A stretch of DNA of 29,855 bases from a virus (Duplodnaviria > Heunggongvirae > Uroviricota > Caudoviricetes), in the IMG/VR virus record IMGVR_UViG_3300033463_000034, one strand, 5' to 3'. The notes below the pieces were generated by a model, which searched no databases, was not told where the DNA came from, and worked only from the letters and a program-made list of their open reading frames with translations. Both the position numbers and the translations under genes were made by a program. Numbering within the stretch: position 1 is the stretch's first letter; every line of letters starts with the position of its first letter. This document shows, piece by piece, positions 3,133-26,800 of the stretch.

Positions 3133-3483
3133 TTATACTGAAATCAAATCAGAAGATTCATTTAATATATTATTATAATTATATAATATATTATTATAAT
3201 GATATCTAGGTTTAAACCATTTTATATATCTATCCATTTCCTCTTTAGCTTCATATTCATTATCTAATACTTCTAATATCACTACTTCAATAGGTTTATT
3301 CTCATATATATTAACTAAATCTCTCCAATAAGGATTTTCTGCATACTGCATATTTTCAATAGCATTATCTAAAAAGACTTTATCTTCTTTATAGATATAA
3401 TTTTCATTATCTACATAAAAATCTATATACACTATTTTTCTTGTTTCTGGTTCTATCATACCATATATTACTCATTTATCCAT
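3133..3483 (-). CDS. degenerate GIY-YIG-like domain protein; TGA=Trp at codon 4
   Basis: RBS GAAAGGA precedes ATG at 3483. Reads MDK(TGA)VIYGMIEPETRKIVYID, i.e. the VIY..x..VYI pattern of GIY-YIG folds, which is lost if the ORF starts at 3459. Confidence 0.6.
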
Positions 3484-3583
3484 TTATATTTCCTTTCAAT
3501 TATTAAAATTAGGACCGCAAAGTTTTTCACTTTAACAGCCTGTAAGGATGTTTTGTGAAAAACATATTTATATTTAGGCTTTC

Positions 3584-3677
3584 TCACAATCTCACATTTC
3601 ACAAAAATCTCACAATATTATTCACATTTTCTCACAAATATTGTTCACAACTAACAATTTATTTCTCACATTTCACA
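3584..3677. repeat. nine TCACA repeats (iteron-like)
   Basis: TCACA at 3584, 3592, 3599, 3610, 3622, 3632, 3645, 3666 and 3673. Confidence 0.75.
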
Positions 3678-3684
3678 ATTTTTG

Positions 3685-4125
3685 TTAGAAACCGTGAGTA
3701 TCGTAAATTACATCAATATCACTAATAATCACATCTTTATTTTTTCAAGGTTCCCTTTGTCTTATAGAATCCCCCGACATTCCTAATATAGCCCCCAATT
3801 CAGAATTACTTGGTAATTTTTTATGCTCCTTGAAAAACTCTCTTATAGCCTCCGTCATTTCTTCATCAGATATTTTAGGTTTACGCCCTCCTTTTTTACC
3901 TTTTTCAGATTGATTACTATTTCAATCATGGGAACCTTCTATTAAAGCTTTTACACTAGTAATAAAAAGTTTAGATACATCTCCTGAATCAGGCGGAAGT
4001 TCACCATATACTCCATAATAACATAAATCATAATTTAATTTATATCTTAATTGTTCATCTTGTATTTCATTTACTGCTTCTAGATATCTTTCATTATATG
4101 TAAAAGTAGTGCCTAATTTTCCCAT
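3685..4125 (-). CDS. DUF6291-like / replisome-organiser-like protein with HTH; two in-frame TGA=Trp
   Basis: FTYNERYLEAVNEIQDEQLRYKLNYDLCYYGVYGELP...GKKGGRKPK resembles the DUF6291 region of phage replication proteins. The GKKGGR motif and HTH lie beyond TGA 3922-3924; second TGA at 3745-3747; TAA at 3685. Confidence 0.65.
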
Positions 4126-4134
4126 ACTAAACAC

Positions 4135-4380
4135 CTACCCCTCGATACCTTCAAAGTATTCTTTTACGGCGGGATGCGTCTCTAAAAACTCATGTAATTC
4201 TTTCATTTGCTGTTCTTCACTTTTATTAATTTTTTCTATATAAATTGCTTTTTTACCTTTCCCTATTTTTTCTATTAATACTCCAGTTTTTCTAAGTATA
4301 TTATATTGTACAGAAGGAAAGTTTTTATAAATTGAATTTACACTATATCCATATTTATTTGCTAATTCTTCTTGTGTCAT
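4135..4380 (-). CDS. small HTH DNA-binding protein
   Basis: MTQEELANKYGYSVNSI is an HTH-type N-terminus. Confidence 0.7.
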   Translation of the reverse strand: MTQEELANKYGYSVNSIYKNFPSVQYNILRKTGVLIEKIGKGKKAIYIEKINKSEEQQMKELHEFLETHPAVKEYFEGIEG

Positions 4381-4569
4381 ATTTTCCCTCTTTTCTTATT
4401 ATACTTATATTATAATTAAAATTTTTCTCATTTGCAAATTCTTTTTGAATATTATTTCCGACTTTTTTCGCCTTATTTTCCAAAATACCATTTGACTTTA
4501 TTGACATTATCTTAATATGGAATGCGGAAATGTCTGCTTTATCAAAGATTAACCACGAAAAAAAGAGCA

Positions 4570-4827
4570 TTAAACATGCTCTATCATATATGAAATCATA
4601 TCCTCTGCATTATCAAAGAAATATTCTTCTTCTGCATTAGACCATCTATCAAAAGTAGTTTTAAGATTTATTCTTAACATATAGCGGAAATCGTTACCTT
4701 TATGCGGCATTACTGCAAGATAATATTTATCTTCAAAAGACCAATAAATATGACTAAGTTCTCCATCATTTTTTACTATTTCTATATTTTCTCCCCAACC
4801 ACTTACATAATTAAAAACTTTATTCAT
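4570..4827 (-). CDS. hypothetical protein
   Basis: ORF with GGAGA RBS before ATG 4827. Confidence 0.7.
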   Translation of the reverse strand: MNKVFNYVSGWGENIEIVKNDGELSHIYWSFEDKYYLAVMPHKGNDFRYMLRINLKTTFDRWSNAEEEYFFDNAEDMISYMIEHV

Positions 4828-4831
4828 ATTC

Positions 4832-5095
4832 TTATCTCCTTCCGCATTTATATTCATAAGAAACTACTCTTATATGTTTAGTTGCGGCAATAGTACAATA
4901 CTTACCCCCTAAAGTACCTTCACCACATCTTTGTGTTTCTCCAATTTCCCCTTCTTCAGTTTGATAAGTATAATTACATATATAAGGATGTTTAAAAGAA
5001 TAATTTAAATAAAATAACAATAACATAAATCCAATAAGTGCGGCAGACCCCGCAATTATTATTATATAGTTAAGTATTTTAAATATTTTTTCCAT
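4832..5095 (-). CDS. single-pass membrane protein with four Cys
   Basis: Hydrophobic N-terminal helix followed by a small Cys-containing domain. Confidence 0.65.
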   Translation of the reverse strand: MEKIFKILNYIIIIAGSAALIGFMLLLFYLNYSFKHPYICNYTYQTEEGEIGETQRCGEGTLGGKYCTIAATKHIRVVSYEYKCGRR

Positions 5096-5101
5096 ATTTT
5101 A

Positions 5102-24620: not shown

Positions 24621-24627
24621 TAATACT

Positions 24628-24698
24628 CAAGACACTAAAATTAAAATTTAAATCATTTGGCAAATTTAATCTTATAATACTTTTGCTGTTCGTGTCTT
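24628..24698 (-). ncRNA. ACAGCAA stem-loop motif, copy 3
   Basis: AAGACAC/GTGTCTT stem enclosing ACAGCAA, directly after a TTGACA/TATAAT promoter. Confidence 0.6.
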
Positions 24699-24747
24699 AT
24701 TTAATTATCTATATATATTATACTATTATTTTTTTATTTTGTCAATA

Positions 24748-24939
24748 TTATTCATTTTCATCTTCATCTACTATTTTAGCAATTTTAAATTTTACTCCTG
24801 TAAAATCACTTGCATCTAAAATAATATCACAATCATTATATGCAGCTTCAACCTTAGCAATAGCTTCTTCTTCTGAATCTGCTTCTACAATAACTTTCTT
24901 TTTTAAAGTTTCTATTACTTTAACATAATAAGTTTTCAT
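24748..24939 (-). CDS. DpnD/PcfM-like small protein
   Basis: Y.VKVIETLKKKVIVEADSEEEAI.KV...Y....IILDASDF matches my recollection of that family. Confidence 0.7.
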   Translation of the reverse strand: MKTYYVKVIETLKKKVIVEADSEEEAIAKVEAAYNDCDIILDASDFTGVKFKIAKIVDEDENE

Positions 24940-25149
24940 ATTTATACACTCTCCTTTTCTTTTATATAAATATTATATAATATATTTATATAAAAATCAA
25001 TAAATTTAACAAAAGACTAAATAAATAGCCTTTTGTTAAATTTTAATAGAAAGAAGGCTTACGAATTCTAAATATTGAATTCGTTATATATATTTAAAAA
25101 TTGCTTATTAATATTTATAATTTTAGACCTTTTCTTTAAAACAAAAAAA

Positions 25150-25226
25150 TGGTGCACCATCTAGGACTTGAACCTAGGACCCCACGCTTATCAAGCGTGT
25201 GCTCTAACCTACTGAGCTAATGGTGC
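25150..25226 (-). tRNA. tRNA-Ile(GAT)
   Basis: Cloverleaf; loop TTGATAA. Confidence 0.97.
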
Positions 25227-25229
25227 AAT

Positions 25230-25600
25230 TGAGATCTGCGGAAGCATCCGTCTAAAGATTGATAAATCTCAACTTATATTGCATAGATCGATGCCACCGC
25301 AATGTATATTATAGGAAGTCTCCTTTTTTACTTTACGAATTAGCTTACTGCATAATGTAAGATATTTTTCTCAATTAGCTATTTTGTTACTCATTCTCTT
25401 ACTTATTGGAGAAAAGGTTTTATCTGCAGTTTTATCCTTTACCTTTAGCAATGTTTGATCCGCTGATCCAACGAACTAATTCAACCCATATACATTTGAG
25501 TAGATTTTCTTAATTTAGGACTATATAAATTTTTACCAAATCTACAAAGATTAATTTAGTCCTTATCAAAATTGATAATGTAAATATTACTTATTTATTT
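25230..25600 (-). ncRNA. candidate structured RNA upstream of tRNA-Ile
   Basis: No ORF; own promoter; crossed helices AGGACTA/TAGTCCT and GTAGATTT/AAATCTAC; TTGAGAT/ATCTCAA. Confidence 0.45.
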
Positions 25601-25650
25601 CATATTTACAATTTTATTATATAATATTTTTTTAAAATAATCAAATTTAT

Positions 25651-25971
25651 TTATAAACCTAAAGCATTTAACAAATCTCTAACATTTTGTTTTTCTTCTT
25701 CTGTAGGTTCTATTACTTTTTTTTCAGTTTGATTAAAATTAATACCCTCTTCTTGTTTATTTATAATTGTTTTTTCTCCAGGTAATGCATTATCATCGCC
25801 AGGAACAACATTTTCTTTTGCTGCTGTTAAAGTAACTTTTACTTGAATTTCTTCTCCATCTTCAACAGTAGGAATTCTTATTTCTTTTCCATCATTATAT
25901 AAAAATGCTCCATCAAAAGTAGAAAGTATTTTTTTAGTTATTTCTAATTTACTCGCTTGTCCCCTCGCCAT
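25651..25971 (-). CDS. hypothetical protein
   Basis: GAGGAGG RBS before ATG 25971 (MARGQASK...). Confidence 0.8.
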   Translation of the reverse strand: MARGQASKLEITKKILSTFDGAFLYNDGKEIRIPTVEDGEEIQVKVTLTAAKENVVPGDDNALPGEKTIINKQEEGINFNQTEKKVIEPTEEEKQNVRDLLNALGL

Positions 25972-26800
25972 TAGAATCTTCCTCCTCATTTTTTATATCA
26001 ATCATTAAATTTACTTTTTCTAAATTAACTGATAATTCTTTTATTCTATCACACATTTGACAATTTCCACCTTTAAGGCATTCGCGGCCGCATTTAACTC
26101 TTTTCTTAACAAATCTAGGTACAATATAACGGCTATCAAAAGTGTCTTTTAAACCAATAATAATTTCTTTTAAATCTCCAAACCATTTTTTATCTTTTTT
26201 ATATATACTATATAATAAATCAGAATTTTTATTATCATCAAAAAATTCACATACATCTATATATGGATTGTAAAATTCAATATCTTCAGGTCTAATCCAG
26301 AATTTTCGTAAATCATCTAATTCTTTTCAAGATGATTGTGCTACATTTGGGAAAACTCTAATTTGAACTTTATTTTTGTGAGCTATTGTTGATATTTTAT
26401 CTAATTCAAAACCTAATCCTTCAACAATATATATATCAGAAACACCATAATCAATTAAACCAACTACACGATCCCAATCATTTACTCTTATATTAAAATA
26501 AAAATTAGCTTCAGGATATTCATTTAAAATGACCCCAATTTCTTCATTTTTTCCACCTAAACGAATATAAAGTTTATATTCTTTTTGATATTTTTTTTGA
26601 ATATCTAATGCAGTTTTTATTCAATTATTATTAATTGCTTCTTCAATGTCATCCATACATAAATTAATTCTTTGGTCTTTATGTTTTTCACAAAATTGAA
26701 CTAAAGCATCTTCATTTTCTATTCTTCCATATTGAATATTAATTTCATCAACTTTATCTAAAATTTTGCTACCTCTGTTAAAATTTATACAATATTTCAT
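25949..26800 (-). CDS. 283-aa peptidase-U32-like (Fe-S) protein; two TGA=Trp
   Basis: One frame from ATG 26800 through TGA 26621-26623 and 26327-26329 to TAA 25949. RVFPNVAQSS(W)..FWIRPEDIEFY..YID and C-terminal CGREC-x5-CQMC. Confidence 0.75.

Follow-up and report, generated by a model that had tools for sequence, protein, structure and literature searches.

Probable reading of TGA as tryptophan in a tRNA-rich phage that carries a five-armed candidate suppressor tRNA

Genes that contain TGA in frame

We analysed a stretch of 29,855 bp (27% GC; hereafter the window) from the IMG/VR virus record IMGVR_UViG_3300033463_000034, in which several genes contain in-frame TGA codons that appear to be read as tryptophan. 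The minus strand carries most genes of the window, from about 3.1 to 27.8 kb. ARAGORN places 24 tRNA genes and an element resembling transfer-messenger RNA (tmRNA) between 15.1 and 25.3 kb, and Rfam supports all 24 of the tRNAs. Length, strand, and conservation were used to choose 43 credible open reading frames (ORFs). The proteins that can be named are an RNA ligase, a DUF2828/DUF7788 protein, a metallophosphoesterase, a sigma-70-type factor, and a pyrimidine-dimer glycosylase. No close relative was found among deposited or cultured phage genomes, where matches to the window are confined to tRNA genes. Protein searches and a tRNA pattern search retrieved a family of 100-136-kb phage contigs that share features with the window, and the longest contig that holds its protein clusters measures 127,686 bp.

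An initial annotation of this sequence had proposed that TGA is reassigned to Trp. All seven minus-strand TGAs that it listed (at 3472, 3745, 3922, 21935, 22151, 26327, and 26621) are present as plus-strand TCA. Each is in frame, and the four minus-strand ORFs that hold them (3133-3483, 3685-4134, 21683-22234, and 25949-26824) are continuous when TGA is translated as Trp. The motifs said to run through these codons (GGS-W-IG, NPL-W-LS, QSS-W-KE, and REP-W-KN) are found in the translations, and there is no in-frame TAA or TAG within the 43 ORFs. The annotation also held that Trp fits at every TGA. Alignment of homologs bears this out at six of the seven sites, where the column is Trp or aromatic, and fails to do so at 26621. 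Its family labels fared unevenly: formate/nitrite transporter (FNT) is backed by Pfam, DUF6291 is a weak match below the cut-off, U32-like holds by fold only, and GIY-YIG-like finds no support in Pfam or PHROG.

The FNT-like gene (21683..22234, minus strand) encodes a 183-amino-acid (aa) membrane protein that matches Pfam PF01226 with an E value of 1.2e-18. It contains no TGG, and its two TGAs stand at 22151-22153 (W28) and 21935-21937 (W100). Both columns are dominated by W, Y, or F across 28 homologs, and the W28 codon is also TGA in the relative L002, where the orthologs are 71% identical. Independent assemblies from ENA, JGI, and Logan carry the identical protein on five contigs, and the DNA of the JGI copy (L001) can be translated only if TGA is Trp. 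Sequencing error, which the initial annotation had named as a case against its own proposal, is contradicted by this recurrence across independent assemblies, and we therefore conclude that the TGAs are not assembly errors. A search of PDB sequences with the FNT-like protein gave no match. The gene is located within the tRNA array, and the short channel of about 183 aa belongs to a family of 2040 database proteins at E<=0.001, many of them on 130-210-kb contigs.

Two smaller genes lie near the beginning of the window. The 149-aa DUF6291-like ORF (3685..4134, minus strand; Pfam E 2.9e-4, under the Pfam cut-off) has TGAs at 3922-3924 (W71) and 3745-3747 (W130). In the column at W130, 18 of 18 sequences have W; the column at W71 is mostly Y, W, or F. 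The 116-aa ORF at 3133..3483 (minus strand) belongs to an unnamed phage family, with no family in Pfam or PHROG, and its TGA (3472-3474) is codon 4. In six homologs of this protein the start lies upstream of the internal ATG, and the TGA column of the alignment holds W or Y; the TGA itself is retained in a relative that is 91% identical (L022).

The fourth gene (25949..26800, minus strand) encodes a 283-aa TIM-barrel protein with TGAs at 26621-26623 and 26327-26329. It has no sequence-family match in Pfam or PHROG and is called U32-like by its fold. AlphaFold, given 24 homologs, yields a confident model (pLDDT 89.5) that is a TIM barrel. The best Swiss-Prot fold match of this model is the U32-family protein MJ1657 (E 6e-7, TM 0.56), and comparison with PDB folds returned generic TIM barrels only. 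Four C-terminal cysteines (C245, C249, C255, and C258) are invariant. At TGA 26327 the column is W in 17 of 23 homologs, and the codon is TGG in two relatives. U32 enzymes include oxygen-independent tRNA and rRNA hydroxylases, and it is conceivable that the U32-like protein acts in the modification of phage tRNAs. Members of its family are present on many 116-145-kb phage contigs.

A further TGA lies in a small conserved ORF (17627..17884, minus strand), where the codon at 17651-17653 is either the stop of a 77-aa protein or codon 78 of 85. The C-termini of homologs vary. As the initial annotation had noted, 17651-17884 is the only one of the 43 ORFs that may end in TGA, and an alternative end lies at 17627, eight codons further. 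The stops of the 43 ORFs are 35 TAA and 8 TAG, and TGA is never required as a stop in the credible genes of the window.

We also compared the window with its relatives codon by codon. Orthologous codons at the window TGAs are TGA (4), TGG (2), TAT (2), and TTT (2), and those at the window TGGs are TGG (132), TAT (13), and TTT (10); the substitution spectrum is thus alike for the two codons. Together, the homolog alignments and this codon-level comparison support the reading of TGA as Trp in these genes.

ORFs with TGA in the ORF-poor gaps of the window (14046-14282, 14748-14975, 24472-24663, and 25209-25451) were looked at and rejected. The minus-strand ORF at 24472-24663 is conserved in L009 and L002 only as nucleotides, with stops in the matching frame there; a conserved non-coding RNA is a likelier explanation for it than a gene with TGA. 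About 1.3 kb at 13817-15158, with a tRNA-Met at its end, lacks credible ORFs whether code 11 or code 4 is used.

A tRNA with two anticodon-type arms

The presumed decoder of TGA is a 95-nucleotide (nt) five-armed tRNA at 19706..19800 (minus strand), recognized by ARAGORN as 'tRNA-SeC(tca)', by Rfam, and by folding. It adjoins an ordinary phage tRNA-Trp with a CCA anticodon (19627..19700, minus strand; ARAGORN, and 59.7 bits with the Rfam tRNA model). The helices of the five-armed tRNA are, in order, the acceptor, the D arm, two anticodon-type arms, and the T arm. Its acceptor has 7 bp with A1-U72 and the discriminator G73, and the CCA end is encoded. Each of the anticodon-type arms is 17 nt long with a 5-bp stem; the first has the loop CUUCAAA (anticodon UCA) and the second the loop CUCCAAA (anticodon CCA). 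The UCA arm is canonically placed on its 5' side, following the D arm and position 26, and the CCA arm is canonically placed on its 3' side, preceding a 4-nt variable loop and the T arm. We reject the 'SeC' label, which is due to the long extra arm; the acceptor/T geometry is 7/5, with A1-U72 and G73. The main identity elements for bacterial tryptophanyl-tRNA synthetase (TrpRS) are A1-U72, G73, and the CCA anticodon. Because A1-U72 and G73 match these elements, the body of the tRNA is of the Trp type.

Thirteen further five-armed copies were found, on ten IMG/VR contigs, on L002, and on two contigs binned in metagenome-assembled genomes (MAGs) of Bacilli, which brings the total to 14 contigs. 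The window's tRNA has no exact copy in IMG/VR. Pairing was counted by a structure-guided parse in Python, and the thirteen homologs keep 24-26 of 25-26 modelled pairs. Compensatory changes occur in both anticodon-type arms, and the top two pairs of each arm show 3-4 pair types. All copies, even one with a divergent body, share both loop anticodons, A1-U72, and G73. That copy, in which the two loops are unchanged, is on L024 (510-601), which, like L025 (4668-4762), is a short contig from a MAG. The bins are named 'Candidatus Scybalousia scybalohippi' and 'Bacilli bacterium', and both contigs are probably phage contigs swept into bacterial bins. Two other relatives have, in addition to the five-armed opal tRNA, an amber-suppressor tRNA whose anticodon is CUA and which ARAGORN labels 'Pyl' (L010, 138-214; L011, 3898-3974), and some members of the family may suppress two stop codons.

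How does a host TrpRS charge a suppressor with a UCA anticodon? The window makes this question testable: a concrete candidate for an answer is the conserved tRNA with its two anticodon arms. We offer, as a tentative idea that we would not yet bet on, that the recoding is done by a new kind of tRNA with a tRNA-Trp body and tandem UCA and CCA anticodon arms, in which CCA serves either for TrpRS identity or for switching between two folds. In the former case, which we find the more attractive, an unaltered host TrpRS could charge the tRNA through the CCA arm, which would preserve the main identity element for that enzyme, and the UCA arm would read UGA on the ribosome. In the latter, the tRNA would alternate between two folds and read UGG or UGA. 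If true, this idea would explain how these phages recode TGA without a TrpRS or RF1 of their own. No natural tRNA that bears two anticodon arms turned up in full-text searches of the literature, and the five-armed tRNA is possibly the only part of our findings that is apparently new.

The tRNA array also contains a tmRNA-like gene called by ARAGORN (16705-17121, minus strand), with a predicted tag peptide that terminates in ...NKVKSLFAFNCVAFA. Rfam tmRNA models score below the gathering threshold on this region. It is 74-76% identical in the relatives L004 and L007, ARAGORN makes the call in L008 too, and the tag (ANKVKSLF...FA) is kept in all three. This element may be a phage-borne tmRNA within the tRNA array.

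Scarcity and distribution of TGA codons

The Trp codons of the window comprise 8 TGA and 65 TGG, so that TGA makes up 11%. In the other twofold A/G codon pairs, the A-ending codons AAA, GAA, CAA, TTA, and AGA have shares of 0.91-0.95, and GC content at third codon positions (GC3) is 0.118. At such a bias, a free synonym of TGG should dominate, and TGA is therefore still strongly avoided. The initial annotation had read the dominance of TGG as the mark of a recoding phage in a standard-code host rather than of an old code-4 lineage. Our comparison of 11% TGA with 91-95% A-ending codons agrees with that view and argues for a reassignment that carries a cost, not for a long-established code 4. 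This contrast is a quantitative signature that sets a costly phage-borne reassignment apart from an established code-4 genome. The long genes named in the annotation do use TGG alone: the 579-aa ORF (9104..10843, minus strand) has nine, the RNA ligase gene (11571..12776, minus strand) has six, and the gene for the DUF2828/DUF7788 protein (28114..29622, plus strand) has nine, with no TGA in any of them. TGA is also absent from the phage gene for a sigma-70-family factor (5881-6732, minus strand), a protein that has regions 2, 3, and 4.

The eight TGAs of the window sit in five of the 43 ORFs. The claim that only a minority of genes is affected proved to be a property of the window, which covers the tRNA array and accessory genes and has no structural module. 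In the relative G002, a complete genome of 135,791 bp with direct terminal repeats that is rated 100% complete, TGA occurs in 44 of 156 ORFs, mostly tail and late genes, with 81 TGA and 432 TGG codons in total. Its TGA share is 18.6% in the tail block (55-94 kb) compared with 2.2% in the replication block (94-131 kb; Fisher P = 2e-6). According to PHROG, the TGA-bearing genes include those for tail and tail-fibre proteins, with 2-5 TGAs per tail protein, and TGA is absent from the genes for DNA polymerase, NrdD, RecJ, DnaB, both topoisomerase subunits, RNA ligase, terminase, and portal. In the relative L002, from ENA, the FNT gene and two genes for GIY-YIG endonucleases contain TGA, and no gene ends in it.

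Calling the genes again with codes 11, 4, and 15, as the initial annotation had suggested, was informative in G002 but not in the window. Coding density in G002 rises from a baseline of 83.4% to 88.8% under code 4, compared with 85.2% under code 15. The densities for codes 11, 4, and 15 in the window are 60.4%, 69.6%, and 66.8%, and we set them aside as a test of the code, in favour of the homolog alignments, because dropping any stop lengthens ORFs in AT-rich DNA. This contig needs gene calling with code 4, without which three genes of the window (FNT-like, U32-like, and DUF6291-like) and many late genes outside it are split.

The annotation had further suggested a search for a phage RF1 or TrpRS. 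Neither an RF1 domain nor a class-Ib synthetase (TrpRS/TyrRS) domain was found in four related records. Amidase_2 and Amidase_3 are also absent from these four records, and one of them, G002, encodes a GH25 muramidase, which makes a host with a peptidoglycan cell wall most likely.

Probable phage-borne recoding and its known counterparts

We consider it highly likely that the phage uses its own code, with TGA as Trp, in a walled host that uses the standard code, and that a suppressor outcompetes release factor 2 (RF2) and TGA is disfavoured in early genes. The window would come from a tRNA-rich ruminant-gut phage of about 127 kb and 27% GC. Its host would most likely have a cell wall and the standard code, and would probably be a member of the Bacillota. 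TGA would be read as Trp by the phage tRNA(UCA), probably charged by the host TrpRS, and TAA and TAG would serve as stops. Decoding would require the phage tRNA to outcompete host RF2, and because of this dependence TGA would be counter-selected in early genes, that is, in replication genes and those for large enzymes. It would build up instead at the Trp positions of late genes (tail, lysis) and of dispensable or mobile accessory genes. That about 5 of 43 ORFs in the window contain TGA would follow from the window covering the tRNA array and accessory genes.

Several observations weigh against this explanation. The AT bias alone also predicts few TGA stops, and the share of TGA stops in a standard-code relative is given as 2.7% by Borges et al. 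(bioRxiv 10.1101/2021.08.26.457843). Both the block bias and the muramidase come from G002, with about 50-70% protein identity, and not from the genome of the window itself. Clustering of TGA into few genes of the window is non-significant by permutation among Trp codons (P = 0.076). In the U32-like gene, TGA 26621 falls in a variable column, and the TGA sites are not kept in relatives, where they are TGG, TAT, or TTT; such turnover suits neutral drift between TGA and TGG as well as regulation.

Are the TGA genes gated? The initial annotation had suggested that the dual-arm suppressor gates them, and such temporal gating is a putative part of the explanation above. The chance that there is no specific gating is, in our judgement, only slightly below even. 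TGG would then change to TGA almost neutrally wherever timing is uncritical, and the genes of the window would sample a low genome-wide TGA frequency. Both the permutation result (P = 0.076) and the occurrence of TGG, TAT, or TTT in relatives at the U32-like TGA sites suit such drift. Two of the four genes share a strand with the tRNA array, in or upstream of which they lie, and would be co-expressed with the tRNA, so that gating is not obviously needed for the four. Drift does less well with the strong block bias in G002 (P = 2e-6), with the TGA kept at FNT W28 between 71%-identical orthologs, and with the finding that TGA is significantly preferred in a few gene families (Borges et al., bioRxiv 10.1101/2021.08.26.457843). 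Altogether, neutral drift accounts for the four genes about as well as gating does, and the small number of TGA genes in the window is largely an outcome of the low overall TGA frequency.

Could TGA simply mirror the code of a host that, like Mycoplasma or Spiroplasma, itself uses code 4? In favour stand the very high AT content of the genome and the use of TGA for Trp, but we regard this as very improbable. TGA accounts for 11% of Trp codons where other pairs are 91-95% A-ending, and the replication genes of G002 are almost free of it. Moreover, the phage has its own tRNA(UCA) beside a tRNA-Trp(CCA), and its relative encodes a peptidoglycan muramidase. More improbable still is that the TGAs are true stops (in pseudogenes, split genes, or assembly errors), glycine (code 25, of the Absconditabacteria/Gracilibacteria type), or selenocysteine. 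The ARAGORN label 'SeC' points towards selenocysteine and the G-rich loop around FNT residue 28 would suit glycine, yet no homolog is cut short at a TGA, and W, Y, or F stand at these sites. True stops are further opposed by the lack of in-frame TAA or TAG in the ORFs, and errors by the recurrence of the TGA-containing protein in independent assemblies. Glycine is essentially absent from the seven TGA columns, where 74 aligned homologs yield one instance at FNT site 100 and one at U32-like site 166, and the marks on the tRNA are of the Trp type. Bacterial tRNA-Sec has an 8/5 acceptor/T geometry. The five-armed tRNA, with an acceptor of 7 bp, a T stem of 5 bp, A1-U72, and G73, departs from it, and cysteine is essentially absent from the aligned residues. 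Altogether, a phage-specific reading of TGA as Trp in a standard-code host is well supported.

Recoding of TGA to Trp by a phage in part of its genes, in a standard-code host, is already known from published work. Among cellular systems, the AT-rich genomes of Mycoplasma and Spiroplasma have TGA as the major Trp codon and have lost RF2. The present case resembles their code 4 in that TGA stands for Trp and that its decoder, presumed in our case, is a tRNA-Trp bearing the anticodon UCA, but differs in that TGA makes up 11% of Trp codons and in that the reassignment is phage-borne and would compete with host RF2. The TAG- or TGA-recoded crAss-like and Lak phages (Mgcod, bioRxiv 10.1101/2022.06.29.495998), which have dual coding in blocks, share phage-specific reassignment of a stop codon in only parts of the genome, a suppressor tRNA, and a standard-code host. 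They belong to other lineages, however, with Bacteroidota hosts and mostly TAG as Gln. Metaproteomics has proven TAG as Gln (code 15; PMC9523058), and this experimental proof is for code 15 only and not for TGA as Trp in the lineage described here.

Judged by described features, the nearest known match is the Agate lineage. The gut phages described by Borges et al. (bioRxiv 10.1101/2021.08.26.457843) infect standard-code hosts of the Firmicutes or Bacteroidetes and have TGA recoded to Trp or TAG to Gln, with suppressor tRNAs present and the reassigned stop depleted under low GC. Agate genomes are about 127 kb and low in GC, and proteins of the window reach a contig of 127,686 bp. TGA as Trp, a TGA suppressor tRNA, and depletion of TGA as a stop are all encountered in the window. 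Agate phages come from the guts of cattle and other animals, and most members lack RF1 and TrpRS. They have TGA in structural, lysis, and homing-endonuclease genes and not in replication genes; in the relative G002, TGA is enriched in tail genes and nearly absent from the replication block. A preference for TGA is found in three Agate gene families, of which one is an intron homing endonuclease, and two GIY-YIG genes of the relative L002 carry TGA. The same authors hypothesize that recoding delays the translation of late genes until the code change is established. The window differs in two respects: the paper describes no suppressor with two anticodon arms, and the TGA genes of the window are accessory (FNT-like channel, U32-like, and DUF6291-like) rather than lysis or tail genes.

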